Assembly: GCA_964641955.1 (NCBI GenBank)
Contig: CAZXNM010000018.1
Span: forward strand, 25,620 to 89,619
Direction of reading: 5' to 3'
Length of the DNA stretch: 64,000 nucleotides
Origin: an uncultured Planctomycetota bacterium
GTDB taxonomy: Bacteria; Planctomycetota; SKW154; DAOVDS01
Shown here: one piece after another, positions 6,602 through 63,969 of the stretch
How positions within the stretch are numbered: the stretch's first letter is position 1
How the letters are laid out: each line of letters opens with the position of its first letter
Notes under the pieces: model-generated
The model's database searches: none
What the model saw: only the letters and a program-made list of their open reading frames with translations
Told to the model about the DNA's origin: nothing
Translations under genes and position numbers: made by a program

Positions 6602-6686
6602 CCGCAGTCTGACGATAGAGAGATAACGATGCCGGGGTGTGCAGCGAATGACTGCGTGCCCCGGTCCTGCTGTCAGGGGGAAGCTC

Positions 6687-8198: not shown

Positions 8199-8336
8199 TC
8201 GGCCGCTACCTCGCAAACGAAGTGCCTGCGAGAGCGTACAAAGGATGGCGGTTTTGACGTGATATTAGAACTGGCGAAGCGTCTTACGGTATGCTAACAT
8301 ACCGGCGGGCTTGAAATATTGTTCCGGAGGGATCAA

Positions 8337-10109: not shown

Positions 10110-10155
10110 GCTCCCGGATCTGGGTGCCGGGACAAAATTTCGTTTCCGAAATTCG

Positions 10156-10183
10156 AGGGTCGCGTGAACCGCGGCCCTTTTTC
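10156..10183 (+). terminator. Intrinsic terminator
   Basis: AGGGTCGCG-TGAAC-CGCGGCCCT (9 bp including one U-G pair) followed by TTTTC. Confidence 0.7.
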
Positions 10184-10226
10184 TTGGTCTAAACACCTGA
10201 GACGGCATTTTCTAAGGCAGCTGTTT

Positions 10227-11321: not shown

Positions 11322-11336
11322 CGGGAGATTAAGACT

Positions 11337-12791: not shown

Positions 12792-12900
12792 GGAGAGAAT
12801 TCGCCCGTACCGCGAAGATGAAGACACCAATTCCCGGCGGAACTCTCGCCTTTGCCGCGCGTTAAACTCACCGGACAGGCTTTACAAGGGAGGATTACCC

Positions 12901-13914: not shown

Positions 13915-13966
13915 ACGACCAGGCCGACAGGCTTATTTGACCCACGGACGGCTGCAATATGAAACC

Positions 13967-13995
13967 TTGCACCGGCGTTCCTGCTATTACATAAT
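13967..13995 (+). promoter_or_regulatory. Putative sigma70 promoter
   Basis: TTGCAC-17 nt-CATAAT, upstream of ATG 14030. Confidence 0.5.
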
Positions 13996-14029
13996 AGAAA
14001 AGGAACAAACACTGCGCAGGTGAATCAAA

Positions 14030-15163
14030 ATGCACATAACGAGAAGGGAATTCCTGAGGCAGGCGGGAAAAACCACGGTGGCCGTGGGGAGCCTGCCTTT
14101 GCTGCTGAAGGCGCTCGGCCTGATTGACGAGCCGCTCTTCGCCGCGGGCGGGTATCCCGAGGCAAAGTACTACGACAAGCTGTCCGGCAAGCAGGTCCAC
14201 TGCATGCTCTGCCCGATGCAGCACGTGCTCGACGACGGCGAGACGGGGCCCTGCCGCACGCGAAAGAATCACGGCGGAGTTCTGAAGACTCACGCATACG
14301 AGAATCCCGCAATTATCAAGGTGGACCCGATAGAGAAGCTGCCCTCGACGCATTTCCTTCCCGACACGAAGACGCTGACCATAGCGACAGGGGGCTGCAC
14401 CCTGAGATGCCTCTACTGCCAGAACTGGCAGCAGTCGCAAAGCGCGCCGGAGGCTCTCAAGACGGTTGACCTGCCGGCGGCGGAGGCGGTCAAGCGCGCC
14501 CTCGGCAAGGAAATCAAGGCGATTGCGTTCAGCTACACCGAGCCGTTCGTTTTCTACGAGTACGCGCTGGAGATTGCGAAAAAAGCCAAAGAGAAGAAGA
14601 TGCGCGTCGCGATTGCCACGGGTGGCTATATCGAGGAGAAGCCGCTCGTCGAGCTGTGCAAGTACGTGGATGCGATTACGGTCGGGCTAAAGGGATTCAC
14701 GGAGAAATGTTACGAAAAGCTGACGAGCCGGTCGCTTGACAATGTGAAAAAAACGCTGCAGACAATCAAGAAAAAGACCAAGGTCTGGCTCGAAATCACG
14801 AACTTGGTCGTTCCCACGTACAACGACGACCGGAAGATGATTACCGAGATGTGCAAATGGATTAAGAAAAACCTCGGTACGGACGTTCCGCTGCATTTCG
14901 GCCGGTTCGTGCCCAAGTACAAGCTCAAGAACCTGCCGCAGACGCCCCTGAAGAGCCTCGAAGAAGCCCGGCAAATCGGCTTGAAGGAAGGGCTCAGGTT
15001 CGTCTACATATCGAACGTGGCTCCGCACGAGGGCAATAACACCTACTGCCCGGGCTGCAAGAAGCCGCTGATAAAGCGCGTTGGCTTCAAGGTTCTCGAG
15101 AACGAGATAAAAGACGGCAAGTGCAGGTTCTGCGGCAGGAAGATACCGGGGGTGTGGAAATAG
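14030..15163 (+). CDS. amrS: AmmeMemoRadiSam-system radical SAM enzyme (PflA-like) with a twin-arginine leader
   Basis: N-terminal TRREFL. VHCMLCP..C...GPCRTRKN, DPIEKLP, GCTLRCLYCQNW, FSYTEP, WLEITNLVVP, PLHF, and C-terminal TYCPGC...CRFCG. Confidence 0.88.
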   Translation: MHITRREFLRQAGKTTVAVGSLPLLLKALGLIDEPLFAAGGYPEAKYYDKLSGKQVHCMLCPMQHVLDDGETGPCRTRKNHGGVLKTHAYENPAIIKVDPIEKLPSTHFLPDTKTLTIATGGCTLRCLYCQNWQQSQSAPEALKTVDLPAAEAVKRALGKEIKAIAFSYTEPFVFYEYALEIAKKAKEKKMRVAIATGGYIEEKPLVELCKYVDAITVGLKGFTEKCYEKLTSRSLDNVKKTLQTIKKKTKVWLEITNLVVPTYNDDRKMITEMCKWIKKNLGTDVPLHFGRFVPKYKLKNLPQTPLKSLEEARQIGLKEGLRFVYISNVAPHEGNNTYCPGCKKPLIKRVGFKVLENEIKDGKCRFCGRKIPGVWK

Positions 15164-35079: not shown

Positions 35080-36072
35080 ATGCGACAAACAGCCTTCGTA
35101 ATCCTGATTGTGCTTTTCATCTTCTCCTGTGCATCGCAGGACAGACTTCAGCCTGTTGAGCCGAAAGACCCCGACCCGTTGTTCCCCATTCAGGTTGATG
35201 GCAAATGGGGATTTATCAATAAAAACAGCGAGGTAGTTATCGAACCTCATTTTGAACACGCAAAGGATTTTATAAATGGAATGGCAAGAGTAAAAATAAA
35301 TGATCTCTTTGGCTGGATTGATGTATCAGGTAGATTTGTTATAGAACCACAATTCAAATGGGCTAGAGTTTTTTCAGAGAACTTATGCTTTGTTGGTAAT
35401 GGGGAATATTGGGGATGCATAGATAAATCAAGTCAAATAGTGATTGATTATATTTATGAGGATGCTTGGCCTTTCAACGAAGGATTAGCATCTGCTAAAG
35501 TTAATGGTAAATATGGTTATATAAACAAAAAAGGAGTTTTTGTTTTAAAGCCTGAATATGACTTTACAGGTAGATTTACAGAAGAACGCGGGACTGTCGA
35601 AGTCGATTATAAATGGGGTTATTCTGATAGAAATGGTGTTATTGTAATTCCTATAAAATTTGATTCGATCTTATGGTTCTCTGAAGGAATTGCGCCAGTC
35701 AAAACCGAAGGGAAGTATTTCTACATTAATAGATTCGGAAAAAAGATAATTGATTCTACTTATGAAGATGCTGATGCGTTTACTGAAGGTCTTGCTCCAG
35801 TGCAAATTAGTAGTAAGTGGGGTTTCATTGATAAAACAGGAAATTTTGTTATCAAACCGACATTTGAGGAAGCATATAGTTTCGTAGATGGGTATGCGAT
35901 AATCAAGATGAATGGAAAGTTGGGATATATAGACAAAAAAGGATCAATTGCAATAAAGCCTCAATTTGACTGCTGTTGGCCTTTCTCCAATGGCTTGGCT
36001 AAGGTAGAGATCGGCGAAAAATCAGGATATATCGATAAAAAAGGCGAGTATGTCTGGAAACCTACTAAATGA
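35080..36072 (+). CDS. WG-repeat (KWG) lipoprotein with an AT-rich core
   Basis: Lipobox-like IFS-C and repeated GKWGFIDKxG...F(S/T)EGLAxV units. Confidence 0.88.
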   Translation: MRQTAFVILIVLFIFSCASQDRLQPVEPKDPDPLFPIQVDGKWGFINKNSEVVIEPHFEHAKDFINGMARVKINDLFGWIDVSGRFVIEPQFKWARVFSENLCFVGNGEYWGCIDKSSQIVIDYIYEDAWPFNEGLASAKVNGKYGYINKKGVFVLKPEYDFTGRFTEERGTVEVDYKWGYSDRNGVIVIPIKFDSILWFSEGIAPVKTEGKYFYINRFGKKIIDSTYEDADAFTEGLAPVQISSKWGFIDKTGNFVIKPTFEEAYSFVDGYAIIKMNGKLGYIDKKGSIAIKPQFDCCWPFSNGLAKVEIGEKSGYIDKKGEYVWKPTK

Positions 36073-46677: not shown

Positions 46678-47814
46678 TTACTTGCTCTTACCTTCGGAAG
46701 CTTGCAGCGCCTTGGCGCGCTCCTGCGCCGCCGCTGCCTCGGGCGCATCCTTGTATTTCTTGGCAAAGGCGGCGTATTCCTTCACTGTTTTCTTGGCAGA
46801 GCTGCCCTTCAGGTCGCTCTCGAAGGCTTTCTCGATTTTTTTCCTGCGTTGCTGCGTCTTCTTCAGAGTCTTTTCAAGCTCCTTGTAATTATCAAGCTTC
46901 TCGAGTTCCGCGAGCTTGTCGGTGAACATCTTCTCGTGTTCGGTGTCCTTGAAGTCTTCCGCGCCGAACGAGGCGCATTCAAGCGCACCGGCGTCGTTTC
47001 CGGCAAGGGTTTTCTCGGCCGAGGCCAGGTGTGCCTTGAGTGCTTCGTCGAAGGATTTAGAGGCCTCCTCTATTTTCTTGTATTTCCTTTGCATGCGAAC
47101 GTCGTCGGTTTTTTCGGGCTTAAGCTTTTCGGCCTTCTTGCGCGCTTCGAGAGCCTGGCCCCACAGGCCGAACTTTGGCCCCCATACAAGGGCAAGCTCG
47201 GTTTCCCCGAAGGGCTTGAGCTTCTTGGCGTATTTTTCTTCGAACGAGTAATTCTGCGACACCCACTGCTTCTGGCTCTTGGCCTCGACGAACTCGATGG
47301 GCACCGACTCGAGCATCTCGAACTTGTTGACGGAGAAATGCAAGTGCGGCGTGCCCGTCCCGGACGCGCCGGAGTAGGCCACGACGTCGCCCTGGAAGAC
47401 AAAATCACCGAGCCTGGGGATGACACCCTTGTTCTTGAGGTGCAGGTAGCACGTGCACATGCCATCCGCGTGCTGGATTATGAGGGAGTTCTGCTTTCCG
47501 CCCCGGTCGGGTCCGGATTCGATGATTTTTATGACGATACCGTCAGCCGACGCGCAGACGGGGGAGCCTATGCGCATGGAGAAGTCTATGGCGTGCTTGT
47601 TCTGCAGCACGGTATGGCTTGCGCCGCCGGGGAGTTGTCCGAAACTCTTTCCGGCGGGGAAGGGGAGGTAGAATTTCGCCGGGGTGGTCTTCGGAACGTC
47701 CGCAGGCCACTTGCCGCCGTAAAACTCGCCTTCCTCGTCGCCTTCACCTGCAGTCGCAGCACCCGCGCACAGGCATGCCGCCAGTAATGCCAGAAATATA
47801 CCTGATAGCCTCAT
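46678..47814 (-). CDS. Secreted M23-family metallopeptidase with a helical C-terminal extension
   Basis: ATG 47814 (SD GGAGG). LPF...SH...AIDF, YLHL, VFQGDVVAYSGASG and PHLHF. Confidence 0.85.
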   Translation of the reverse strand: MRLSGIFLALLAACLCAGAATAGEGDEEGEFYGGKWPADVPKTTPAKFYLPFPAGKSFGQLPGGASHTVLQNKHAIDFSMRIGSPVCASADGIVIKIIESGPDRGGKQNSLIIQHADGMCTCYLHLKNKGVIPRLGDFVFQGDVVAYSGASGTGTPHLHFSVNKFEMLESVPIEFVEAKSQKQWVSQNYSFEEKYAKKLKPFGETELALVWGPKFGLWGQALEARKKAEKLKPEKTDDVRMQRKYKKIEEASKSFDEALKAHLASAEKTLAGNDAGALECASFGAEDFKDTEHEKMFTDKLAELEKLDNYKELEKTLKKTQQRRKKIEKAFESDLKGSSAKKTVKEYAAFAKKYKDAPEAAAAQERAKALQASEGKSK

Positions 47815-50125: not shown

Positions 50126-51424
50126 TCAATCCATCTTCTTGAAGTTACCGCCGGTGGCTTTGGCGAGCGCTTCCATGAACTGGGCGCACTTGGCCTTATC
50201 TTCCTCGAAGCCGAAATCCTCGCCCTTGCCCACCATGAACGCGATGGTGTGGACCTTCCTGCTGCCCACAAGGTTCATGGCCTTGGTCTGGCCGAGAATC
50301 CAGTCGCGGTTGGCCTCGTCGCTGTTGGGCGGGTGCGTCGGCTCGCCGTCTGAGAGGAAGTAAATCGTGTCGATGTCCTCGTTCTGGAAGGCCTCCTTCA
50401 GGGCGCCGTAAGTGTATGTAACGCCATCGGCCTTGAGTTTCTTGATAAAGCCCTTAGCGCTGCTCTTGTTCCCGGCGGTTGCCTTGACGGGCTTCTTCTT
50501 CCAGGATTTGACCGACAGGTCGAAAGTGATTATGTTGAACTTGCACTTTTCGTCTATCTGCGTGTCGAGGACCTTGCAAAGCTCATCCTTGACAATGTCG
50601 AGCCGGCTCATTTTCTTCTTGGACTCTCCCCATTCCCCTTCGGTCTTCATGGAACCGGACGTATCGACTACGAATATCACTTTCTTGCTCTTGATTCGCC
50701 CGTAGATGGGACTGACCGCCACGGTCTTGGGCTCACCGATAATCGGCCTTGCGGTCTCGGGATTGTCATCATACCCACCGCCGCCTGCCGGCGGGGCCCA
50801 GGAGTCCCTCTTTTTCTTCCACCAGTTTTTCCAGTCCTCGGGCTCTTCGAGCCCGGTAGCGCCGGTCATCTTTTCGAGCACTTCGCCGATTTCATAGACG
50901 AGTCGGCCCTGCTCCTTCTGCACCTGCGCTATCAGCGCATCGACGAGCCTCGTGCTCGGGGTCATCGCGCCGAGCGCCTTCGCCACCGCAAGACGGACCT
51001 CCCATTTCTTGTCGCCGAGAATCTTGAGCAGCCCGTCAATCGAGAAGTCGTCTCCATACTCGCCGAGCACCTTGGCCATGACGGCGCGCAGCCGCCAGCT
51101 CTTCTCTTTCGTTATGTTTTCCGACATCCAGTGAACTATTTCCTGAGTGCGCATGCGGGAGAGGGCATCGTATGCAGCCTGCGTGGCGATATAGGAGGCA
51201 TCCTTCTCGAACGCAACAGCGAGGATGGCCTTGGCGGCCTCGACTGTCATCTGGCGGGAGACCTTATTTATTGCGGCTTTCTGATTGAGCGGGAAGTTCT
51301 TGGCATCTGCCCATTCCTTCTGGAATTCCTTGATGGCGTCGCTCTGGGCGAGACACAGCGGCACCGTCAGGAACACCAGTAGGAGAGCCGCGAGAATAAA
51401 ACGCAAATGTCCGGAAAACAGCAT
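50126..51424 (-). CDS. Secreted HEAT-repeat + VWA-domain protein
   Basis: SD AGGAGG, signal peptide, HEAT repeats, and MIDAS DTSGSM...T...FLSDG. Confidence 0.88.
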   Translation of the reverse strand: MLFSGHLRFILAALLLVFLTVPLCLAQSDAIKEFQKEWADAKNFPLNQKAAINKVSRQMTVEAAKAILAVAFEKDASYIATQAAYDALSRMRTQEIVHWMSENITKEKSWRLRAVMAKVLGEYGDDFSIDGLLKILGDKKWEVRLAVAKALGAMTPSTRLVDALIAQVQKEQGRLVYEIGEVLEKMTGATGLEEPEDWKNWWKKKRDSWAPPAGGGGYDDNPETARPIIGEPKTVAVSPIYGRIKSKKVIFVVDTSGSMKTEGEWGESKKKMSRLDIVKDELCKVLDTQIDEKCKFNIITFDLSVKSWKKKPVKATAGNKSSAKGFIKKLKADGVTYTYGALKEAFQNEDIDTIYFLSDGEPTHPPNSDEANRDWILGQTKAMNLVGSRKVHTIAFMVGKGEDFGFEEDKAKCAQFMEALAKATGGNFKKMD

Positions 51425-51463
51425 CTGTAATCCTCCTGTCCCGCGAGCAGGAACCCGGCTGCC

Positions 51464-53683
51464 TTACTTGCTGTTGCCGTCGGCCTTGAAGAAGAGCCGG
51501 TGCCTGAACTCGCCGTAGTTTCTCTTTGAGAGGTCTCGCAGGAAGTCCACGCTGGGTCCCACGGGCACGGGGTTGTTGGCTCCATCGGTGTGTTGAACCG
51601 TGTAGAAGCCTACTGCGTGGATGCGCGTTTTGCCCTGCAGGTTCTGGTCGGCAATAACTCGCACAAGCTTCGGGGGGTAGACATAACGCCCTTCGTTCGG
51701 CACGCCGTCGCTGATGATGACTAGGTCGTCCGGCTTGCTGCGCAGGACCGTTGTCAGGGCGTGGTAGAAATTGGTTTTTCTTTCTTGGGGCAGCAGCACC
51801 CTGTCGAGCCACTGCAGAGCCTTGGCTTTGTTGAGCTTGTCGGCGCGCGGGAGAGATGTCTGGGAAAAGCCCCGTATGTTCGAGCTGAAGAAGACTATGT
51901 TGAACTTGGTTTCCTTCGGGAGGCCGATTATGGACTGCTTGATTAGGTTTTTCGCCTCGTCCAGCTTGCCGTCGTTTCTCATGCTGCCCGATGCATCCAC
52001 GAGGTAAACAACCGAGTTTGTCCACAGCGGGATGTCGATAAACGATGCGGGCGCGCCCGGAATCGCCCCGGGGTCGGGATTTGTCTCGGGGTATGGCCCC
52101 ATCTTCTTGAACCAGGAACTCCAGTCGGAGCCTTTCACGTAGCGCTCGCCCGTAATCCGCCACAGAGCAGTCAGGACGGCGCCGCGCAGTCTCAGGTCTG
52201 TCTGGGTCTTGTGGCTCTTGTAAAGCTTAATCAGCGGTTCGACCGCCCTCACATCGGGATTCTCGGAAAGCGCCATGGCGGCGGCTTCCTCGACGAGCGG
52301 CTGGGCATCGTTGAGGAGGCGGATCAGCGGCATCACGCAGCTAAATGTTCCCGTCCTGCCGAGTGCCCGGAGCGCGGCTTCTCTTACGACCCACTGCCTG
52401 TCCTTGAGAGCCTTTAGCAGGACCTCCTCGGCGGCCGTGTCCTTAGTTGCGCCGAGCGCCATGCAGATAGCCACACGCACCTTTTCGTCCGGTTCCTTAA
52501 GCAACGCGGCCGCAAGCGGCTTGTAAGATACGGGCTTGTCCACGATGGCGAGTACTTCGGCGACCATCTTGCGCACGTTCGCTTGCCGCTTCTGAGAAGA
52601 CAGGACTTCGCTGACCAGCCAGTCGAGAGTCTCCTGCCGTTCTATCTGGGCAAGCGCGTCCGGTACGGTCTCGCGAATTTCCCCTTCTTCTGCTGCGTCA
52701 TCGTAGATGTAGAGCATTACGCCTGCAGCCTGCTTGCTGCCGTTTTCCGCAAGCGCAAACAGCGCCTCCCGCCGCACGGAAGTATCAACTTTCCTGCGTT
52801 CGCCTATCAGGATGCTCTTGAAGAAATTCAGGGTTTTTTCAATAGGCAGACTTGCCAGCTTGTGCAGAGCATCCACCTGGCCGTCAACGTTGCGGGCCTT
52901 GGCCGCCGAGAAGAAATCGTTCTCGAGCGTCCGCAGATTTGCCGCGGCAACCTTGACTTCTTTGTCGGGTTCCTGCTTCAGAGGTTCTTCGCCGGGGCCT
53001 TCGACGTGTGTGCCTTCACTGCCCGGTGCGGGTGGCGTTTCGGGAATTTCAGGTTTCTCCTCGACATCATGCTCCCTGGGCTTGTCTTTAACGATAGCTT
53101 CTGGTTTTTCTTGCCTGCCTTCGTCTACAAAGGATGGTAATTCAGGCGCCTTGGGTCTGTCAGGCACCTCTACCGGTTTCTCGCGCTCAGATTCTATCGG
53201 GAACAGCTCGGCCAAATGCTGCTTCTTCTTTTCCTCTTCATACTGCTCCGGACTTACGTATGTAGTCTTCACGAATGGCTGCTTCTCCTGGCTGTCGTCC
53301 GCAGCGGTAATATCAGGCTCGTCCGGTATATCGGTTGGCTCTTTTACGCCGGATTTGGACATGATAAGCACTATGACTATCAACGCTGCTGCGGCAATGC
53401 CGGCCGATATGGCTTTCCTGACCCAGTTGCGCGACATCACCGGTACCATGTAGGCCCCGGTGCCCTCCCTGTGCAGCCGGGCTTCCAGGCGTCTTACGAA
53501 CGAGGGCGAGGCTGCAAGGCGGGGTGCCTGCTTGAGCGCTTTCTTCGCATCCCGGAGATCCTTGAAGTACTGCGAACACTCCCGGCACGAACTTATGTGA
53601 TTGAGCAGGGACCGGGCCTCTTCCGGCTCAAGCTGTCCGTCCACAAGGTACGATAATTTTATCTTGTTCTCTTCGCAGCCCAT
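51464..53683 (-). CDS. Zinc-finger (zf-HC2/ZAS) anti-sigma-like membrane protein with HEAT repeats and a VWA domain
   Basis: YLVDGQL...HISSCREC, one TM helix, PE/K-rich linker, HEAT repeats, and MIDAS DASGSM...ISDG. Confidence 0.85.
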   Translation of the reverse strand: MGCEENKIKLSYLVDGQLEPEEARSLLNHISSCRECSQYFKDLRDAKKALKQAPRLAASPSFVRRLEARLHREGTGAYMVPVMSRNWVRKAISAGIAAAALIVIVLIMSKSGVKEPTDIPDEPDITAADDSQEKQPFVKTTYVSPEQYEEEKKKQHLAELFPIESEREKPVEVPDRPKAPELPSFVDEGRQEKPEAIVKDKPREHDVEEKPEIPETPPAPGSEGTHVEGPGEEPLKQEPDKEVKVAAANLRTLENDFFSAAKARNVDGQVDALHKLASLPIEKTLNFFKSILIGERRKVDTSVRREALFALAENGSKQAAGVMLYIYDDAAEEGEIRETVPDALAQIERQETLDWLVSEVLSSQKRQANVRKMVAEVLAIVDKPVSYKPLAAALLKEPDEKVRVAICMALGATKDTAAEEVLLKALKDRQWVVREAALRALGRTGTFSCVMPLIRLLNDAQPLVEEAAAMALSENPDVRAVEPLIKLYKSHKTQTDLRLRGAVLTALWRITGERYVKGSDWSSWFKKMGPYPETNPDPGAIPGAPASFIDIPLWTNSVVYLVDASGSMRNDGKLDEAKNLIKQSIIGLPKETKFNIVFFSSNIRGFSQTSLPRADKLNKAKALQWLDRVLLPQERKTNFYHALTTVLRSKPDDLVIISDGVPNEGRYVYPPKLVRVIADQNLQGKTRIHAVGFYTVQHTDGANNPVPVGPSVDFLRDLSKRNYGEFRHRLFFKADGNSK

Positions 53684-53794: not shown

Positions 53795-53929
53795 GTAAAT
53801 TTCCTCTCCTATTGCACAATTCAGCAACTTCTCAGAAATTTCAGGAAAAAATCTCGGAGTTCTTTGTCGATGGTCCGGGCGGGATGTTTAATGCTACCCC
53901 GGGATGCGTTTTTTTGCTACAATATCTTC

Positions 53930-54415
53930 ATGGAAACGGAAGGCGATGATTTCTTCATGGGCGAGGCTTTGAAGCTTGCGCGCCGCGCCGCGCAGGAGAA
54001 TGAGGTCCCGGTCGGGTGCGTGATTGTACACGGAGGCAGGATAATCGCGCGCGCACACAATCAGGTCGAAACGCTGCGGGACCCGACGGCGCATGCCGAG
54101 ATGATTGCCATAACCCAGGCGGCGGAGGCACTCGGGAACCACAGGTTCGCGGGAACATGCCTGTACGTTACCTGCGAGCCGTGCGCCATGTGTTCCGGCG
54201 CCATGCTGCTTGCGAGAATCGAAAGAGTAGTATACGGCGCTTCGGAGCCCAAGACGGGTTGCGCGGGGTCGCTAATGGACTTGCTGCGAGATGGGCGGTT
54301 TAACCACCGCTGCGAGGTCACCGGCGGCGTTATGGCGCAGGAGGCAGCGGAGCTTATGAAGCAGTTTTTCGAAGACATGAGGAAGAAGAAGGGTTTAAAA
54401 AACGTCGAAAGCTGA
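53930..54415 (+). CDS. tadA: tRNA adenosine(34) deaminase
   Basis: EVPVGCVIV, DPTAHAEM and EPCAMC. Start assigned to ATG 53930. Confidence 0.95.
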   Translation: METEGDDFFMGEALKLARRAAQENEVPVGCVIVHGGRIIARAHNQVETLRDPTAHAEMIAITQAAEALGNHRFAGTCLYVTCEPCAMCSGAMLLARIERVVYGASEPKTGCAGSLMDLLRDGRFNHRCEVTGGVMAQEAAELMKQFFEDMRKKKGLKNVES

Positions 54416-54431
54416 TAGAATTGCTTGGATG

Positions 54432-54516
<85 letters not shown>

Positions 54517-54719: not shown

Positions 54720-55094
54720 TCAATTCGATGGGACGACTGGGTTTTCCGGTATGTAGACGACTTCTCCCGTCTTGAGCCTGTAGCATACACCGAGTCTCTT
54801 TCCCTCGCCTCCTATCCGGTCGGTGGTCATCCTGTATTTTTCCAGCTTGATTCCTCTCTTGTTGATAATCTCCATATCCGGCTTGCCGGGATTCTTGACC
54901 AGAGTTACATCCTCTCTCTCTGCCAGGAATTCCGGCAGGCTGAAATAGGTGACCAGCGCCAGAAGCAGCGCAACGGCGAAGACCATGCCTGCATCAAAGA
55001 GATTGGCCATGCCCGCGAGAGGGTCGTCTTCAGCCGGAGACAATATTTTCCTGAACCGCCTTGCCTGCCTGTATCCTGCCGGCGTTTCCGTCAT
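54720..55094 (-). CDS. DUF2149-family protein (HmuV-like)
   Basis: DDPLAGMANLFDAGMVFAVALL, KNPGKP.MEII, and G.G.RLG..YRL.TGEVVYIPE. Confidence 0.88.
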   Translation of the reverse strand: MTETPAGYRQARRFRKILSPAEDDPLAGMANLFDAGMVFAVALLLALVTYFSLPEFLAEREDVTLVKNPGKPDMEIINKRGIKLEKYRMTTDRIGGEGKRLGVCYRLKTGEVVYIPENPVVPSN

Positions 55095-55728
55095 CCTGTA
55101 TTTCTCCTCCCTTGTTCCGGGTGGACCAGTTCATGACGAATTCAATATCCGCCATGTCCTGCGCATACCACCTGCGGCGCGCGAGATTCATTCCGTAACA
55201 GAGGCCGCCGACGGCAAGCCCCAGAACGGTCGTGCTGAAGGCAACCACGAGGTTCATCGCCATTTCATGGATGTTTCCCGATGTCAGCCCTATCAGAGCG
55301 GGCCCCAGGGGAATGAGGGTTCCCATCAGGCCCAGCATGGGCCCCAACCGGGTGCCAAAAGACATTCGGGAGAGCTTCCCTGCAATCTCGATTTCCAAAT
55401 CGGCCATCAGTTTGTGCATCAAGATCAAGTCGCCGTGCAGTTGCTGCGCCATATACGAGAACTTTCCCAGGAAGCCCGGCAACGCAGGCTTGCCGAAGAA
55501 CTCCAGGTTGAAACCGGCGGGGTTTTTCCGGGAGCTTCCGGAGCTTTTCGCGGAAAGGTTTTTGTACAGCCGCCTCCATTCTTTCCGCCCCTTGCGACGG
55601 TCGAGATACTCTCGAACGAAACCGCCGGCTTCCATGAGCGACCATCCCAGCATGAACAGCAAGGTGAGAATGACAGGCACCAGCAGCGCCGTAGAGACGA
55701 CATAGAGAATTCTAATAAGGGACTCCAA
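55030..55728 (-). CDS. MotA/TolQ/ExbB proton-channel-family protein (HmuU-like)
   Basis: Likely TTG start 55728 (SD GAGGGG). LGPMLGLMGTLIPLGPAL and VVAFSTTVLGL. Confidence 0.9.
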   Translation of the reverse strand: MESLIRILYVVSTALLVPVILTLLFMLGWSLMEAGGFVREYLDRRKGRKEWRRLYKNLSAKSSGSSRKNPAGFNLEFFGKPALPGFLGKFSYMAQQLHGDLILMHKLMADLEIEIAGKLSRMSFGTRLGPMLGLMGTLIPLGPALIGLTSGNIHEMAMNLVVAFSTTVLGLAVGGLCYGMNLARRRWYAQDMADIEFVMNWSTRNKGGEIQDDGNAGRIQAGKAVQENIVSG

Positions 55729-55742
55729 CGCATTCCCCTCCT

Positions 55743-58700
55743 TTATTTTGCCTCGAAACGAGGAGCGCCTTTCCGAAACCGGTAGCCCGCATATATGACA
55801 AGGATGACCACAAGGCCTATCAGCATCTCGGTCAGGGGCCAAGTCCGTGCGACCGACGAAGTTTCTTTTACGGGCTCCATCTTCTTGCCTTCCACAGTCT
55901 CTTCTTCAGGCTCCTCGACCGGCGGCGCGGGCGCAGCTTCTTCCGGCCTGGATGATGCCATCTCGGCGGCCGTCTTCTGGCGGTACTGCTCAAGGAGCGC
56001 CCGGGTTACCTTTCCCGTCGTGCTGTCGGGGCCCGGCGCCGAGAGCGTCCGCGCGAGGAAGAAATCGAGCTTCTCGTTGACCTCGCCGGGCTCGCTGTGG
56101 CCGTGGCGGACGACCGACTCTGCATACGCAGTCGCTATTTCCAGAAGAGTCGCCTCGTCGGGACGCCAGTACTCCTTCCTGATTGCCTCCAGCAGGTTTT
56201 CCGTCAGCCCCTGGAAAGCATACGGATTCTTGGCTTCGAACCACTCCCGGATATTCAGGTTCTTCTTGTCGCGCAGGTAGACATTGACAATCTCCTCCCA
56301 GATGTCGGCGGAGACGCTGTCTTCCCGGTTGATTTCCCATCCCAGCGTGCAGAATACTCCGCCAGCCATCTGCTGGGCACCGGCGTAACCCTCCTCCATC
56401 ATACCCTCAATCCACTTGCGATTGAAGAGCGTCGCGCGGATATCCTTGCGCATGGCGTCTTCCGCCCGGACGACTTCTTCCTCACCGGGATTGCGAAGGT
56501 CCGAAATAAAATAATCCGGCTCCTTGCCCGTCACTTCCTTGATAACCAGACACAGGTTTCCGCCGTTGTACCATCCGCCCCTGTGCGGGCCGCCCCGGGT
56601 GACATTTTTCAGCACGACCCCGGTTCCCTGGAGGTGACGCCTGTATGCTTCGCGCGTCTTCTCGCCCCAGCATCCCTCGGTGTACGCGTAGTCCCGCTCT
56701 TCGAGATACACATCGACCAGCTCCAGGCGCGAGTCCCATTTGCCCGTCTCTTCGAGCAGAAGGAAGTGAGTATAGCTTACCAGTTCCGGTGCCATTGCGA
56801 AAATGCGGGCGCGGGACAACGTTTCCGCGCGCTCCTGCGACAGGCCGTCCACCTTGAGCTCTCGATAGACTCGCGTCCGGTTCTTGAAGAGATTGTTGTT
56901 CGGTTCGTCAAGCTCGGAGACCATTCGAATAGCCTTGTCCCACAGGCGCAGCCGGCCTTCGAGATAGTCAACGTAATAATCGTATGTCTCGACGAAAACA
57001 TCGATTCTCGGACGGCCCAACTCCTTTGAGGGAATAAGCGCAACATCCATCACCCGGTTGCTCGCGTCCCAGACTGGACGGACCCCAATCAGATAGAGAA
57101 TCTGCGACTCCAGAACGCCGTAATCCATAAGGGTGCTGCGGAAATTCAGGGAAAGGCCGATTTTCTCCGGATAGCACCCGTCGGTTTTGAGTTTCTCGGC
57201 AAGCAGTTGGTCCACGAGCTGCTTGCCAAGCTCCCATGAGGGCTTGCTGGGAATTTCTTCCGGGTTCATGATATACATGTTCCGGCCCGTGGGGAGCACG
57301 GCCGGGTTGCGTTCGGGCAGGTTTCCCGGACCCGGCGGCATGAACCGCCCGTTCAGCGCGACGAGGTAATTGTCGATTTCCATGTGCGTTCGGGCGAAGC
57401 CGTCGTGCAGGTGCTTGGCGGCGTCGAAACCTTCCTTGAGCTTCCTCGGCATCCCCTGCTCGCCTATCTTGCCTCCGACCGAGGCGATGGCTTCCCCCGG
57501 AGATTGATTCTGCTTGAGAACCTTTTCAATCACTTCCTGCGCCTTTTGCCGGAGATATTTCTTGCGGTCTCCCGGCAGGCGGTCATGTTCCGGCGGGACC
57601 GGGACCGTTTCATCCAACCCGTCCAGGAAATGTCCCCCCAGACAGGTCACGACATAAGGTGCCAGCAAGTCGTCGCGCGGAGGCTGCCCCATCACGTGAT
57701 AGTTCACGTTTATCTTCTCGTGGTAAATCTCGCTTAAATATCCGGCGATGCTCCTGATTTCCTCGGGTGTCAGTAACTGGTCCCTCTTCAAGTCAAGGCG
57801 CAGGTCCTGGTCCAGATGCGTTTCGCGCACCTGCTGCGTGATGGATGCCCGGAATTTTTCTTCGAGCGCACCTTCGGGCGTCCGGTCCCACTTGATGATA
57901 TCGGTCTGGAGGTTCAAGAGCTCGTCCGCCAGTTCCGCGTTCACGTCCGGCGAGACGAGATGGTCATCGAGGACGGCGCGCGTCTTGCGTCGCGCCGGCA
58001 GGGACCAGTTCAGCTCGCAAATCGGCCATACCCGGACGTTTGGCATATTCCCCATGAGGATGTCGGGCCAGTCCGCCCGGCGCAGGCCTATCGCCTTGCG
58101 GGGCAGGCAGTAGTCCATTATCAGGAACTCCCACACGACTAGGGCATCGGTCTTGAAGCCCTCCTCGATCCAGAAATTGGCCGCCAGCTCGTTGTGGCTG
58201 GGCTGGACGTTGTAGGGGTCCTCTCTCAGTCGCTTCAGGAGCGCCTCGCGGTTGTCTTGGTCCAGGGCGTCCTCGCCCTCCGGGAACTGCTTGGGCACGA
58301 GAATCACCTTGCTGCCGTCCAGGTCAATCTTGGGAATGACGAGGAACTGTTTCCCCCGGTCATCCTTCCAGACCATGAACTTGCCCGGTATCTCACCCCA
58401 CTCCTTGATTACGGCCTTTCTCTGCTCCTCGGGCACTTTCGCTTCGAACCACTTCCGGTACGTCTCCACGGGAAGCAGGACGGCTTTCCCGCTGCGGGCC
58501 AGCTTGTCCAGTTCGTCCGGCGCGTCGGACAGAATCTGCCGGCCGTGGTCTATCATCCAGTCAATCAGCTCGTCCTGGTCCTTCGGTATCTTGTTAACCA
58601 CATAGCCTTCCCGCTTCATCCGTTTAAGTAGATTAATGATGCTCTCGGCGTAAAGCGTGTCCTGCGTGCCTACCAGCATCTCCCCCTTGTCCGGAGGCCC

Positions 58701-59864
58701 GAGATACTGGATGGCGAGTTTCTTGTCCCGGTTGTGCTTGCGGCGAAGGTTGCACCACGCCGCCGCCCGGGCGATGAAGTGTTCCATGCGGTCCGGAATG
58801 GGAACCACCTGCGAGAAGAAATCCCGGCTGCTGACGGTCGGACCTGCGACTGCATGCGGCTCGATAATGCCACGGCTTTCCGATATCATCTGGAAGCCCC
58901 TGACCCTGCTTCGGGGGCGCTTCGTATCCCCGGCTTCCGGGTGCAGCCACTCGTCAATCGTCTCGCCCATCAGGGACATCGGCTGAATCACGGGCGCGCC
59001 GAGGGAGATGTAGAACTCGACCTTTCCGCTCTTGCCGGTGTGCCTCATAAGCAAATCGGGCTTGAACTCCCTCATGTATTTCTCGTAAGTCTCACCGATT
59101 GTGTTTATGGCGGCTGCAAGCATTCCATGCTTCTCGAACGCACGTATCAGCATGTCCACGTATTCCGGGCGGTGAACGACATGACCCATGTTCGTCTCTA
59201 TGAGCGCCCGCGGGGCGTCGATGTCCCTGCCCTGCTTGCGGGCCCACTGCAGGAACTCCTCCACGCTCGCGAAAGTCCCCTCGTGGTCGGGGTGATAGAA
59301 CCACCGGCTCTCGTATTTCTCCGGGGGCTCGACCTTCCCGGGCCGTCCCAGGTACGTCACGGCCAGGTATACCAGGTATCGCCGCATGTTTTCCTGCGAT
59401 ATGGCCTGGAACCAGGTGTACTTTTCAATCTCGGCATCTTTCTCGACCGTCCCGCTTTCAATCAGGCCCGGAAAGCTCTTCTGGAACTGGCCGGCACCCC
59501 GGCCGCCCACCACGATGCGCATATTCGGATGCTGTTTATTCGCGGAAACAAGGAACTTTTCAAGAAGCTCCTTGTCTTCCTTGCTGTCCAAACCTCTTAT
59601 TCCCCCTAGGATAATGAGCCGGCAGGAGGACAGGTCCACTGCTTTTCGCTTGATGTCCTCGTTCGTGAAGGATACGACCTGCACGCCCAGCGATTCCTTG
59701 AGCTCCTTGAAGCGGTCTGCCAAGAATCCCCCCATGCCGTAGATGCAGATAACTTCCGGCTTCTCCGGCTCCTGCCCGCGGACCTTTCCGGGCAATCCGA
59801 CGCTGGCAATCAGGACCGCAAGACTTATCAGGACGGCGATTGTCAGGCTCTTTTTCTTTACCAT
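55743..59864 (-). CDS. CobN/Mg-chelatase-family protein with a signal peptide and C-terminal TM anchor (HmuS-like), divergent
   Basis: ATG 59864, hydrophobic N-terminus, VLPTGRN, LGRPRIDV, KWIEGMMEEGYAGA, WFEAKNPYA, and a C-terminal TM helix. Confidence 0.88.
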   Translation of the reverse strand: MVKKKSLTIAVLISLAVLIASVGLPGKVRGQEPEKPEVICIYGMGGFLADRFKELKESLGVQVVSFTNEDIKRKAVDLSSCRLIILGGIRGLDSKEDKELLEKFLVSANKQHPNMRIVVGGRGAGQFQKSFPGLIESGTVEKDAEIEKYTWFQAISQENMRRYLVYLAVTYLGRPGKVEPPEKYESRWFYHPDHEGTFASVEEFLQWARKQGRDIDAPRALIETNMGHVVHRPEYVDMLIRAFEKHGMLAAAINTIGETYEKYMREFKPDLLMRHTGKSGKVEFYISLGAPVIQPMSLMGETIDEWLHPEAGDTKRPRSRVRGFQMISESRGIIEPHAVAGPTVSSRDFFSQVVPIPDRMEHFIARAAAWCNLRRKHNRDKKLAIQYLGPPDKGEMLVGTQDTLYAESIINLLKRMKREGYVVNKIPKDQDELIDWMIDHGRQILSDAPDELDKLARSGKAVLLPVETYRKWFEAKVPEEQRKAVIKEWGEIPGKFMVWKDDRGKQFLVIPKIDLDGSKVILVPKQFPEGEDALDQDNREALLKRLREDPYNVQPSHNELAANFWIEEGFKTDALVVWEFLIMDYCLPRKAIGLRRADWPDILMGNMPNVRVWPICELNWSLPARRKTRAVLDDHLVSPDVNAELADELLNLQTDIIKWDRTPEGALEEKFRASITQQVRETHLDQDLRLDLKRDQLLTPEEIRSIAGYLSEIYHEKINVNYHVMGQPPRDDLLAPYVVTCLGGHFLDGLDETVPVPPEHDRLPGDRKKYLRQKAQEVIEKVLKQNQSPGEAIASVGGKIGEQGMPRKLKEGFDAAKHLHDGFARTHMEIDNYLVALNGRFMPPGPGNLPERNPAVLPTGRNMYIMNPEEIPSKPSWELGKQLVDQLLAEKLKTDGCYPEKIGLSLNFRSTLMDYGVLESQILYLIGVRPVWDASNRVMDVALIPSKELGRPRIDVFVETYDYYVDYLEGRLRLWDKAIRMVSELDEPNNNLFKNRTRVYRELKVDGLSQERAETLSRARIFAMAPELVSYTHFLLLEETGKWDSRLELVDVYLEERDYAYTEGCWGEKTREAYRRHLQGTGVVLKNVTRGGPHRGGWYNGGNLCLVIKEVTGKEPDYFISDLRNPGEEEVVRAEDAMRKDIRATLFNRKWIEGMMEEGYAGAQQMAGGVFCTLGWEINREDSVSADIWEEIVNVYLRDKKNLNIREWFEAKNPYAFQGLTENLLEAIRKEYWRPDEATLLEIATAYAESVVRHGHSEPGEVNEKLDFFLARTLSAPGPDSTTGKVTRALLEQYRQKTAAEMASSRPEEAAPAPPVEEPEEETVEGKKMEPVKETSSVARTWPLTEMLIGLVVILVIYAGYRFRKGAPRFEAK

Positions 59865-59923: not shown

Positions 59924-62113
59924 TTAGAATTCGGCTGTCACGCTCAGCTTGAGGCTGAACGGGTCGCCGGGGCTGACCCTTATCTTGTGGCGGGCGCCCG
60001 TGTAGTATTTCTCGTTCGTGAGGTTGTCGATGTTCACACGGAATTTCCACGTGGCGTCCTTGCGCTTCAGCGGATACTCGAAAAACAGGCCCGCCACGCC
60101 GTATGCGGGAAGCTCGTATCCCGGCAGCGTCCCGTCGGTGTCCAGGTTCTTTGCGCCTTTGAACTTGAGGCTCGTTCCCATCTTCAGGTTGGCGAGCCTG
60201 CCGTAAGGAACCTTGTACGCCACCTGCGCTGCAATGTCATACCTCGGCTCTTGCCAGTAGCCTTCGTTGTTGAGTTTGCACGAAGGCACCAAAGTGCACG
60301 ACAACCGGGCGGACCAGTCTTTGGTTACCTGCCCGGCCGCGGTGAATTCGTAGCCGCGCGACCCCGTCTTGCTCGTAAGCTCTACGTAGGTACGGGTGGC
60401 GTCCCACTCGGGAAGGTTGTCCTGCTTCAGATAATAGGCCGAGACGGTGCACATGAGTTTCTTCGCGGGCTTCACCTTGAAGCCGCACTCGTTGAGTCTC
60501 GCCGACCATCCCTCGGTGATTCTGTCTCCATTGATATCGACCATGCCAAGGTTCGGCCCGTTGGTGTCCATGTACGCCGCGTAAACCGCAAAGGCGGGGT
60601 CGAAGAGATACGTGATGCCGTATCTGGTGGAGTTGTCACGCCCTCTGACGCCATCATCGTAGTGCTCGTCGTAGCGTCCGCCCGCAAGAAAGCGCCACGA
60701 TTTCCAGGAGAACTGGTCCTGCAGGAATATACCCGTGCGCTTGACGATAGACTCGCTCGGTGAACTTATCCTTCCACCAGGCTGGAGGGCGGGAAAGTCC
60801 AGAATCTCCGGGTCGGTCACATCGTACCAGTCGGCTGTCGTCAACCAGGCTCCAACACCTCTACGGTCCCTGATATCCAGGACCTCCACGCCCCCGACAA
60901 GCTTGTTGTCTAACTCCTTCCCGGATTTGTTATGAAGCATGAAGCTCACGTTGTATCCCTTACGCGTGGATACGTTGTCCCCGACGAATATACCCATGGG
61001 AGAGGTGCCCGTATTGCGTATCTCGTTAAAGAAATTGATATCCATCTTCCATCCCGCAGCGCTGTAGGCCAGCCCGCGGGTGACATACTGATTCCTGCCG
61101 CGGAACCACGATACTCCGGCATTGACGGTCAGAATTTCGTTGGGCTTCCATCTTATTCTGGATTGCCCGAGCTGTCCCGCGTAATAGGTGCGCGTGTCCT
61201 CGTTGCCGTAGTAGGTGTCATAGTCGCTTATCAGCTTGCCCTCTATCAGGGGGACACCGAAGTAAGAGGCTATATCCTTCCCCAGGCAGGAATAGTCGAA
61301 GAGTATCTCCAGACCTTCGGCGGGCAGCAGCTTGATGCTCGGAGCCACGATGTAGCCGACATCCGGCTTGATTTCACTCGGCAGGTAATGCGGCCGCTCC
61401 GTGTCCCTGGCCACGTTCAGGCGGAAAAGTACCCCTTTGGATACCGGTATGTTGTAATCTGCGTGAACACGGCGGGAATCATCTCCTTCATCCAGCCCCA
61501 GCAGCCCCACCGCGCTGAAAGTCGTCTTCAAAGACTGCTTCTCGAATGGCTCCTTCGTTACGATATTAATGCCGCCCCCGAGGCCGGCCGAGTTGTCACT
61601 GGAAAGAAACTGACCCTGGACCGCTGCAGCCGAGCCCTTGAAATACTCGATACGCTCGACTATCGCCGAGTCCAGAAACATGTTCATGTTCTTGGGAAGC
61701 GCGAACCCGTTGATTGTGGTCTCCGTGTCCCCGAATCCGCGAACCTTCGCGGCGGGCCCCCATCGTAACCCGAGAAACGGCGCTTCCGTGTAATCCACTC
61801 CCGATACCAGTTGCCAGGCATCCGCGAACTGCGTAACACCCAGCTCATGCAGCATCTGCCTGCCCAGCACTTCATACGAGAGGGGCAGCTCGATGGGCGG
61901 AGTATCGGTCAGCGTCAAACTCCTCGCCGGCGGTATCTCTTCGTCTTTTTCTCCCTTGACAACGACTTCGGGCAGCTCGACCTCCTTTTTCGGCTCATCT
62001 TTCTTGACTTTTTCCGTCGTCCCCGTCTGGGTGGATTTGCCTTCATCATCTTGGGCCAGGCCGGTTGAAGGTGTCAGGACTGCCAGAAACACGGCGATGC
62101 GCAGCCACTTCAT
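59924..62113 (-). CDS. TonB-dependent outer-membrane receptor
   Basis: ATG 62113 (SD AGGGG), signal peptide, TonB-box-like ELPEVVVKG, plug motifs RGF and ERIEYFKG, and C-terminal NIDNLTNEKYY...SVTAEF. Confidence 0.92.
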   Translation of the reverse strand: MKWLRIAVFLAVLTPSTGLAQDDEGKSTQTGTTEKVKKDEPKKEVELPEVVVKGEKDEEIPPARSLTLTDTPPIELPLSYEVLGRQMLHELGVTQFADAWQLVSGVDYTEAPFLGLRWGPAAKVRGFGDTETTINGFALPKNMNMFLDSAIVERIEYFKGSAAAVQGQFLSSDNSAGLGGGINIVTKEPFEKQSLKTTFSAVGLLGLDEGDDSRRVHADYNIPVSKGVLFRLNVARDTERPHYLPSEIKPDVGYIVAPSIKLLPAEGLEILFDYSCLGKDIASYFGVPLIEGKLISDYDTYYGNEDTRTYYAGQLGQSRIRWKPNEILTVNAGVSWFRGRNQYVTRGLAYSAAGWKMDINFFNEIRNTGTSPMGIFVGDNVSTRKGYNVSFMLHNKSGKELDNKLVGGVEVLDIRDRRGVGAWLTTADWYDVTDPEILDFPALQPGGRISSPSESIVKRTGIFLQDQFSWKSWRFLAGGRYDEHYDDGVRGRDNSTRYGITYLFDPAFAVYAAYMDTNGPNLGMVDINGDRITEGWSARLNECGFKVKPAKKLMCTVSAYYLKQDNLPEWDATRTYVELTSKTGSRGYEFTAAGQVTKDWSARLSCTLVPSCKLNNEGYWQEPRYDIAAQVAYKVPYGRLANLKMGTSLKFKGAKNLDTDGTLPGYELPAYGVAGLFFEYPLKRKDATWKFRVNIDNLTNEKYYTGARHKIRVSPGDPFSLKLSVTAEF

Positions 62114-62148
62114 AGAGTATCCCCTATAAGCATGTGGAGCATTGATAA

Positions 62149-62265
62149 TGAAAGGGTACTCCAGCGGCTTCGAGGATAAATCCCCGCTGCGACACTGGGA
62201 CTTGACACACGCAAGTCCTTCAACAGAAGAGTGTTCCTGCCCATCTGCCGAAGAGTACCCTTTCA
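62149..62265 (-). promoter_or_regulatory. Candidate cis-regulatory RNA (four-way junction) in the 5' leader of the TBDR-CobN operon
   Basis: 13-bp perfect closing stem TGAAAGGGTACTC/GAGTACCCTTTCA around three hairpins. The G-U pairs work only on the mRNA strand. Ends 35 nt upstream of the ATG. Confidence 0.5.
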
Positions 62266-62529
62266 ACCGGGATTTCGATGAGGATTGAATCCGCGAAGCA
62301 ACCGACAGGCAGGAACTATCCGACCTCAAACAGCAAATGATGTGCCACAGGCGGGTATCCCCGAGATGCGTTTCACATAGAAGCGCGTAATTGTCAGCCA
62401 GACAAACATTTATAAGCGATTGCTCTGGTTGCCGGCTTCCTCAGGATGGCAGGAGGCGGCGCTCAATTCCTATGCACACCGTGTCCACTTGCTGGCCAGT
62501 AGCCAGGTGCGCTGGGGCGTGGCGGATGG

Positions 62530-63969
62530 TCATTTCCGAGGGTAGACGCCGAGTTCGAGCGTCAGTTCAATCTCCTCACCCGCGCGCTTCACCTTGAATA
62601 CCGCCTTGTCGCCACGTTTCTTCTTCTTGAGGAGTTCGAGGTTGGCCTTGTGGTCATCCACCTGCTTGCCATCCATTGCGAGGATAATATCGCCGGCCTG
62701 TATTCCACCTTTTTGGGCAGGGGAGCCCGCGACGACTTCGCGGACCTTTGCGCCCTTGCCATTGTAGTTCTCGTCGAAGTAGACGCCCATCATGGGCTTG
62801 TTCACGCTTGAGACCCAGTTCTTCCATTCCGGTTCGAAGTCGTCGATCTTCTTCCCGACGACCTTCTCGAGTGCCTTGACGGCGGCTGCCGTCGTGTTTG
62901 TGGCATTGGGGTCATCCGGATATGTCTTTGTGTACTCCTTGTAGAACTTGTAAAGCAGGCCTTCTTCCTGCAGATAAAGGAACAGGTACTTCACAATCTG
63001 GTAGGCATGGGCGATATTCACTGCCGACCAGTTGTAAAACACGTTCTTGAATCCCTTGTATGTCCCGTTTTGTATCGACTGTTGAAGGCCCGGAAGCCGC
63101 CAGTGGTGCTGCCAGGAGAGATGACTCTTTATCTCGCCCGATTTCGTAAAAGTGGGACTTTCGTATAAAGTGCCGAATCCCTCGACTACCCACTGGGGCT
63201 GCGCGTCCTGTTTCCGGGCAAGCGCATCGGCCCAGTGCAGCGCATGGGTGAATTCGTGCGTGACAGTGCCAATTCCCGTGTCGATTCTCACGTAAAGGGT
63301 CTTGTGGGCGTGTACGTAAGCTCCCGCAGCTCTCGAATATCCTGCGCCGAGCAGTCTCGTGAAAGCCTGTCCGCCCGCGCAGATTACGACCGAGAGGTAG
63401 TAGTCGGGTTTCTTGGTGAAAAGGTGCTTCGCGTGAGAATCCGCCGTGAGCTGCAAGTTGCGAATTATATTCTGCATCTGCGCCGCCGACACCTCGTAGG
63501 CCACGATGAATTTGTACTTGTCGTCGCGGGCGTACTTGAACGGGTCGCCGAGCTTGCCTTTCCAGTATTCCAGTTTCTTGTCTGCTGCTGCCCTGACGTA
63601 CTTGTCCTTTTCCTTGAGGATAGCTTTGAAGTCATTGTCGTTCTTGAGCTTCTTGAGGTCCGGGTCGTCCTTCATCCGCTCGAAATACACGTAGCCCTTA
63701 TCCACGGCCATCTTGAGGCTCTCGACGGCGCTCTTCCTGTCGCCCTTGAGAGCTTGCGCGCATGCGAGGTCGTAATAGCCCACGGCGAAGTCCGGGCTGA
63801 GTTCCAGCACCTTCCTGTACAGCCCGATTGCCTCGTCGTAATTCTTGGACTGCTTGGCCTTGTTTGCCTGCGCGTAGAGCTGGTTCACATCCTGGGCCTG
63901 TGCCGGCAGACAGAGAATGGAAAGCAGTATAGGGACTGCGAAAACAATCGGTATCCTGCTCGAATGCAT
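62530..63969 (-). CDS. Secreted TPR + HExxH (DUF1570/peptidase-MA-like) + PDZ protein
   Basis: Signal peptide ending AQA-Q, TPR (YYDLACAQAL), THEFTH, WVVEGFG, and PDZ (GSPAQKGGIQAGDII). Confidence 0.85.
   Translation of the reverse strand: MHSSRIPIVFAVPILLSILCLPAQAQDVNQLYAQANKAKQSKNYDEAIGLYRKVLELSPDFAVGYYDLACAQALKGDRKSAVESLKMAVDKGYVYFERMKDDPDLKKLKNDNDFKAILKEKDKYVRAAADKKLEYWKGKLGDPFKYARDDKYKFIVAYEVSAAQMQNIIRNLQLTADSHAKHLFTKKPDYYLSVVICAGGQAFTRLLGAGYSRAAGAYVHAHKTLYVRIDTGIGTVTHEFTHALHWADALARKQDAQPQWVVEGFGTLYESPTFTKSGEIKSHLSWQHHWRLPGLQQSIQNGTYKGFKNVFYNWSAVNIAHAYQIVKYLFLYLQEEGLLYKFYKEYTKTYPDDPNATNTTAAAVKALEKVVGKKIDDFEPEWKNWVSSVNKPMMGVYFDENYNGKGAKVREVVAGSPAQKGGIQAGDIILAMDGKQVDDHKANLELLKKKKRGDKAVFKVKRAGEEIELTLELGVYPRK

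Follow-up and report, generated by a model that had tools for sequence, protein, structure and literature searches.

What kind of element occupies the leader of the TonB receptor/CobN-like operon encoded on the minus strand of this DNA, and does it act as an RNA? The window, i.e. the whole 64-kb stretch of DNA that was analysed, had been described in an earlier note as carrying a riboswitch-like four-way junction in this leader. The parts of the element are as follows.

62265-62149, minus strand: structured RNA element of 117 nt, in which the helix P1 encloses three hairpins.
62253-62265, minus strand: 5′ strand of P1, UGAAAGGGUACUC, recognised in the sequence, by RNAfold and by a repeat search.
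62219-62252, minus strand: P2 hairpin of 9 bp plus 3 bp, with the loop CAGGAACA at 62239-62232.
62198-62218, minus strand: P3 hairpin, GGACUUG/CAAGUCC, perfect 7 bp with a 7-nt loop.
62162-62197, minus strand: P4 hairpin with two possible registers; in the MFE structure 5+2+6 bp, interrupted by a 2-nt bulge and a 2x2 AG/AA loop.
62149-62161, minus strand: 3′ strand of P1, GAGUACCCUUUCA, recognised in the sequence and by RNAfold, a candidate anti-Shine-Dalgarno (anti-SD) sequence.

All of the helices listed in the earlier note, P1 to P4, are present in the minus-strand sequence at these positions. The two strands of P1 (62265-62253 and 62161-62149) comprise 13 nt each, are 100% complementary, and have 91 nt between them. 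In P2, the 9 bp, two of which are G-U pairs, are followed by a U/U 1x1 loop and the GGG/CUC stem that carries the terminal loop. The hairpin assigned to P4 was recovered, but not its pairing register: the MFE structure is built from CAGUG/CGCUG, GC/GC, and CGGGGA/UCCUCG and leaves zero unpaired bases at the junction (-52.2 kcal/mol for the earlier model versus -58.7 kcal/mol). The complementarity behind the suggested ACACU/AGUGU pseudoknot is also present; however, it shares bases with the inner P2 helix and with the base of the MFE P4 and is only mildly unusual, being matched by 506 of 20000 shuffles (2.5%).

The four-way junction was reproduced by RNAfold on the mRNA strand, with -59.8 kcal/mol for 136 nt. 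Dinucleotide shuffles of this sequence reached -38.5 ± 4.0 kcal/mol (z -5.35 for the element), and none of the 200 shuffles equalled it. Among 6388 windows of 130 nt from both strands of the 64 kb, the element was the top outlier after GC correction, with a residual of -26 kcal/mol versus -19 kcal/mol for the runner-up. The second most stable 130-nt fold of the window, at 46961-47090 on the plus strand, has -56.7 kcal/mol and a residual of -19. No GC anomaly was detected at the element itself.

The complementary strand reached -45.5 kcal/mol, i.e. the mRNA strand was better by 14 kcal/mol. The MFE structure contains 46 base pairs (25 G-C, 16 A-U, and 5 G-U) and about 77% of its bases are paired. 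On the mRNA strand, every one of the five imperfect pairs is G-U, a bias expected in about 1 of 32 cases if the pairs were strand-neutral. Since a G-U pair on the mRNA strand corresponds to an A-C mismatch on the other strand, these data support the original argument for an RNA structure over a DNA palindrome. The structure model rests on one sequence; the only other instance, the leader in an independent Logan assembly (run SRR14802574) of the same sample, is identical, so the element is not a one-off assembly artefact. By thermodynamic prediction, the transcript strand of the leader folds into an exceptionally stable, strand-specific four-helix junction.

The cmscan comparison with Rfam, which had been proposed as a check, revealed no match of a known family to the element. 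With Rfam 15 at the gathering score, the sole match in the whole window was a tRNA-Ser at 54432-54516. The region 61900-62600, searched with lax filters at E<=10, yielded only a meaningless match to a lncRNA (E 6.2). No cobalamin, NiCo, SAM-I, or ribozyme match appeared at either threshold, in agreement with the initial view that the RNA belongs to no known family. ARAGORN detected nothing at the element, and no terminator was found after it on the mRNA strand. As judged by these models, the element is not a cobalamin, NiCo, or SAM-I riboswitch, a known ribozyme, or a representative of any other curated Rfam 15 family.

The operon downstream of the element consists of the following genes.

59924-62113, minus strand: TonB-dependent receptor of 729 aa with the signal peptide MKWLRIAVFLAVL; Pfam Plug domain and weak NCBIfam matches to siderophore/hemin receptors.
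55743-59864, minus strand: CobN-family protein of 1373 aa, HmuS-like; PF02514, E 4e-216.
55030-55728, minus strand: MotA/ExbB-like membrane protein; PF01618, also a gene call in the short extension L054.
54720-55043, minus strand: DUF2149 protein, the last gene of the operon; PF09919, E 1e-29.

These Pfam domains bear out the position claimed for the element, namely the leader of a TonB receptor/CobN-like operon. In the receptor, Pfam recognises the Plug domain only; the barrel model misses its barrel. Among solved structures, the CobN-like protein is most closely related to that of the heme dechelatase HmuS (9d26, E 1.3e-106), followed by CobN (7c6o, 6e-80) and ChlH. The operon, which encodes an HmuS-type CobN-family protein with a TonB receptor gene immediately upstream, is therefore called hmu-like. 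The full HmuYRSTUV set, including the hemophore HmuY, is absent: there are four genes only, and the upstream neighbour encodes a TPR/PDZ protein. Because HmuY is missing, the name does not go beyond 'hmu-like'; the substrate may be heme or another tetrapyrrole. In the hmu system of Bacteroidota, HmuS strips iron from heme, and anaerobic heme dechelation of this type was characterised only recently (PMC12583661). Cobalamin riboswitches are present in the hmu-like clusters of Bacteroides that lack HmuY, and these clusters may handle corrinoids (PMC10100974). The operon in the window is a probable heme-uptake operon.

Just past the downstream end of the hmu-like operon is a tRNA-Ser(CGA) gene, which directly follows a gene for a TadA-like deaminase with MafB19/dCMP deaminase domains (together 53864-54516, plus strand). 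The distant locus L052 also has a tRNA after the DUF2149 gene. Two adjacent genes at 50126-53683 on the minus strand encode proteins with HEAT repeats and a VWA domain, the larger of which has an N-terminal zf-HC2 anti-sigma motif.

The host is a member of the Planctomycetota and probably an anaerobe. This assignment is based on named relatives and on the presence of desulfoferrodoxin, radical SAM enzymes, multiheme cytochromes, and HEAT/VWA, WD40, and DUF1570 proteins. At 6639-15160 on the plus strand, the gene for a multiheme cytochrome is clustered with those for two radical SAM enzymes, of which one has a SPASM domain, and for proteins without assigned function; the desulfoferrodoxin gene is located just upstream of the cytochrome gene (7863-8240 of the extension L055). 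The cluster and the desulfoferrodoxin gene suggest an anaerobic lifestyle. Also on the plus strand, a patch at 35421-35570 has a G+C content of 0.28-0.31 compared with 0.58 for the window. It lies inside the first of two adjacent genes with WG repeats (PF14903; 35080-36069 and 36050-37156) and, by composition, looks like horizontally acquired DNA.

Two signals flank the element on the transcript strand.

62332-62347, minus strand: sigma-54-type promoter consensus TGGCAC-N5-TTGCT (-24/-12), TGGCACATCATTTGCT, 11/11 match.
62111-62126, minus strand: ribosome-binding region UAGGGGAUACUCUAUG, with the Shine-Dalgarno (SD) sequence GGGGA at 62124-62120 and the ATG at 62113-62111.

The sigma-54 consensus has the same orientation as P1, precedes it by about 67 nt, and is the only exact match on either strand of the 64-kb window (128 kb). 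It agrees with TGGCAC-N5-TTGCW, has GG at -24 and GC at -12, and stands upstream of a gene. Assuming the usual spacing from the -12 element, we infer a transcription start near 62321 and a 5′ UTR of about 208 nt; the hmu-like operon is probably transcribed from this sigma-54 promoter. No Sigma54_activat domain was found in the scanned large ORFs of the window or in the short extensions (about 7 kb). In a related locus, L042, genes for a sigma-54-activator two-component pair stand beside the receptor/CobN-like operon in divergent orientation. About 35-45 nt ahead of the -24 element of the window is the palindrome TGTC-N5-GACA (TGTCTGGCTGACA; 62382-62394, minus strand), which could be a binding site for a regulator.

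As had been noted earlier, the fold ends 35 nt ahead of the ATG at 62113. This start codon is well supported by the SD sequence GGGGA, the signal peptide, and the identical 729-aa product predicted by a gene caller. An N-terminal extension via an in-frame TTG ORF was rejected: it has no RBS or other support, and the signal peptide begins at the ATG at 62113. A 44-codon upstream ORF (62244-62110, minus strand) was likewise rejected as a leader peptide; it has no recognisable RBS or other support and is probably due to chance. Its AUG lies inside P2, and its UGA overlaps the start of the receptor gene (AUGA), as in translational coupling.

Parts of the leader can also pair in ways that compete with the junction. 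One partner lies upstream of P1.

62304-62316, minus strand: 5′-terminal segment of the predicted leader, GUUCCUGCCUGUC, which complements the 5′ strand and loop of P2.

This segment pairs with GAUGGGCAGGAAC (62245-62233) through 13 contiguous ungapped base pairs, two of them G-U. The complementarity was equalled by 4 of 2000 dinucleotide shuffles of the flank, and two control flanks were not significant. Seven bases of the segment, GUUCCUG, complement the P2 loop CAGGAAC, so this pairing would be possible without opening P2. On the other side of the element, the P1 3′ strand UGGAGUACCCUU can pair with AGGGGAUACUCUA (62125-62113), which covers the SD sequence and the A of the AUG; the RBS is a near-copy of the P1 5′ strand, i.e. 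a direct repeat. The predicted energy of this duplex is -15.0 kcal/mol versus -8.9 ± 2.4 kcal/mol for shuffles, 31 of 2000 being as good. Neither statistic is more than modest (p about 0.002 and 0.015), and both are post hoc. The forced state with the 5′ flank paired to P2 has -78.1 kcal/mol versus -87.4 kcal/mol for the junction state, a gap of only 9 kcal/mol, with a paired RBS predicted for both. The MFE structure also contains a long-range helix that joins the 5′ flank to the SD-AUG region; it is no better than shuffles (127/300 and 242/300) and was discarded. Comparison of the global duplex energies of flanks and core was uninformative.

The receptor, searched for with its sequence and with a profile, is a near-orphan, with two relatives of >40% identity among 5.8 billion proteins; both sit mid-operon behind other genes, and their spacers are unstructured. 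For the CobN-like protein, about eight relatives with 60-67% identity were found, all from metagenomes. Their loci keep the order receptor, CobN-like, ExbB-like, and DUF2149. The receptor of locus L040, the one compared, is 22% identical to that of the window and is non-orthologous. Compared with a related planctomycete locus, the receptor of the window has taken the place that a non-orthologous receptor occupies there in the operon. A scan of GTDB representative genomes with the CobN-like protein retrieved only CobN paralogues of methanogens and other archaea with about 28-35% identity, which were of no use for the leader. Control genes are present beside some of the relatives: the sigma-54-activator two-component pair in L042, a two-component pair in L044, and ECF sigma/anti-sigma genes in L040. 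These neighbours suggest protein-based control in the CobN-like relatives.

A covariance model, R1, made from the sequence and structure of the element in the window, matched only itself in the window, L001, L002, L040-L044, L051-L053, and L054. Eight related leaders displayed no significant structure (z -1.35 to +1.07) and no Rfam match, which at the distances compared (receptor 22-42%, CobN-like protein 38-67% identical) is absence of evidence, not disproof. Since no homologous leader was found, there is no conservation to report and covariation is impossible to assess. A lack of conservation or covariation in homologous leaders had been named beforehand as what would refute the idea of a metal- or tetrapyrrole-responsive riboswitch. 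As far as the data extend, this lack is observed, with the motif, an Rfam match, and significant structure all missing in the eight leaders; the relatives are so distant, however, that the missing conservation is weak evidence against a riboswitch. The claim is neither supported nor excluded. As far as found, the element appears to be lineage-specific.

The explanation that we regard as best, at somewhat less than an even chance, is a lineage-specific cis-acting RNA gate or structure, its trigger unspecified, in the 5′ UTR of the hmu-like operon. The element would act as a conformational gate on translation of the receptor gene. In the folded state, the 13-bp P1 would lock away its own 3′ strand (GGAGUACCCUU, complementary to the RBS), and initiation would be possible. 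In the alternative state, 62316-62304 would pair with the 5′ half and loop of P2, and the junction would fail to form or would open. The freed P1 3′ strand could then pair with the SD/AUG region, and translation would be blocked. Co-transcriptional kinetics might shift the balance between the two states, or else a small molecule, an sRNA, or a protein might do so; protection of the 5′ region of the mRNA may also be all that the fold provides. A kinetic choice, a protein, mRNA stabilisation, or RNase III processing is at least as likely an explanation as a small molecule.

We infer the gate from the z score of -5.35 and the top rank among 6388 windows, the strand specificity, the position before the start codon and downstream of the only exact sigma-54 consensus, the alternative pairings, and the absence of any sign of foreign DNA. 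Weighing against it are the lack of a homologue, the unstructured related leaders, a 13-bp P1 that is very hard to open thermodynamically, the modest statistics of the alternative pairings, and the lack of a sigma-54 activator gene in the window and its short extensions. The length of P1, the high proportion of paired bases (about 77%), and the junction without unpaired bases argue against both a classical ligand pocket and a thermodynamic switch. With the RBS paired in both states and the long-range MFE helix at chance level, a clear ON state is not predicted.

The rival that survives best, although we consider it unlikely, is a MITE/REP-like palindromic insert between promoter and start codon, with a neutral or incidental effect on expression. 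The perfect 13-bp terminal inverted repeats, the length of 117 bp, and the absence from all related loci fit such an insert, as do the helices, which are nearly undecayed as in a young insertion. The interior, however, forms three separate hairpins and not one long hairpin, and the exclusive occurrence of G-U among the imperfect pairs of the mRNA strand (5/5) would be a rare outcome for a strand-neutral insert. Nor was a target-site duplication found around the inverted repeats (flanks ...CCCGGT and TTATCAA...), and the GC content is not anomalous. The possibility of a repeat scattered over the genome had been raised earlier; no second copy was detected in the 64-kb window plus about 7 kb of extra sequence (L054/L055), some 70 kb of genome in all, which makes copy number a weak test. 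A scan of JGI metagenome contigs for the P1 arms with a gap of 80-100 nt gave six chance matches in a collection that does not contain this organism. The four that were read have nothing to do with the element, and the covariance model fits none of the six. BLAST of the element against plasmids and phages returned no match. With normal composition, a single copy, and no plasmid or phage match, the element bears no sign of foreign DNA in the sequence searched.

Rather improbable, in our estimate, is a passive element, namely a 5′-UTR stabiliser or RNase III site that would set the mRNA half-life without switching. Such a role agrees with the extreme stability of the fold, in which P1 stacked coaxially on P2 or P4 would give a helix of about 22 bp, and with the long leader, for which no convincing pair of ON and OFF structures is predicted. 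It leaves the complementarities between the 5′ flank and P2 and between the P1 3′ strand and the RBS unexplained, however, and the relatives give no precedent. The translational gate would make use of both complementarities.

Less probable again is a new class of small-molecule riboswitch that responds to heme or another tetrapyrrole, to a corrinoid, or to a metal; the junction would be its aptamer and the pairing of the P1 3′ strand with the RBS its expression platform. The missing Rfam assignment leaves room for it, and the context is apt: a receptor and an HmuS-like dechelatase, in an operon type that elsewhere carries cobalamin riboswitches (PMC10100974). The anti-SD logic resembles that of translational ON switches, and two tertiary partners are conceivable for the P2 loop. 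A riboswitch class would normally occur in many lineages, however, and the element is absent from eight of eight related leaders; its near-perfect long helices and fully paired MFE junction offer no obvious pocket, and ligand energy could not tip a 13-bp P1. Small-molecule sensing by the element is possible but unsupported, and its anatomy is atypical for an aptamer. The more specific proposal, that the junction is the aptamer of the first natural heme, protoporphyrin, or iron riboswitch and turns translation on by locking the anti-SD sequence into P1, would be a long shot. Action at the DNA level, in which a regulator would bind the 13-bp inverted repeat downstream of the promoter, as an operator or as a cruciform, is the least probable reading: the repeat is perfect and near the promoter, but a distance of 91 bp between its arms is large for a dimeric operator, and the strand asymmetry of 14 kcal/mol and the nested hairpins point to RNA.

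To our knowledge, no natural RNA sensor exists for heme or non-corrin tetrapyrroles. A structured leader before an HmuS-type operon is a cheap and specific candidate for probing. Even without a ligand, the RNA gate favoured here would be a clean de novo, lineage-specific example, with P1 as the anti-SD sequence, a competitor strand at the 5′ side, and a sigma-54 promoter. RNA regulation in the Planctomycetota is almost unexplored, and the lineage that carries the element is almost unsampled. If the element were a selfish palindromic insert, it would be ordinary. Its value is that of an experimental candidate, not of a comparative proof.

Several known systems resemble the element in part. Cobalamin riboswitches (RF00174 and variants) occupy the same position before TonB receptor/CobN-like operons, such as the hmu-like operons of Bacteroides (PMC10100974). 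The element differs from them in having no cmscan match at E<=10, no B12 box, and another architecture; the related planctomycete operons have no cobalamin riboswitch either. The NiCo riboswitch (czcD motif, RF02683) also arranges four helices around a junction and occurs in a metal-related context. It binds metal at conserved junction bases, whereas the MFE junction of the element has no unpaired bases, its P1 is 13 bp long, and it has no cmscan match to this family. The SAM-I riboswitch (RF00162) shares the P1-P4 four-way junction and a possible pseudoknot between the P2 loop and J3-4 (ACACU/AGUGU in the element). The element displays no sequence or covariance-model similarity to SAM-I and has an unrelated gene context, and its pseudoknot competes with predicted helices and is weakly above chance.

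MITE and REP-type elements, e.g. Correia and ERIC, are intergenic palindromic elements. They are comparable to the element in their size of about 100-150 bp, perfect terminal inverted repeats, location in a leader, and transcription into stable RNA. The element differs in its single copy in the sequence searched, the lack of a target duplication, its three hairpins, and its strand-biased G-U pairs.

The adenine riboswitch of the Vibrio vulnificus add gene is a translational ON switch in which the P1 3′ strand doubles as the anti-SD sequence. Its aptamer has a three-way junction, a short P1, and a conserved pocket. The element has no known ligand, pocket, or conservation, but it shares the logic of the add riboswitch: in both, the formation of P1 would remove the anti-SD strand from the RBS.
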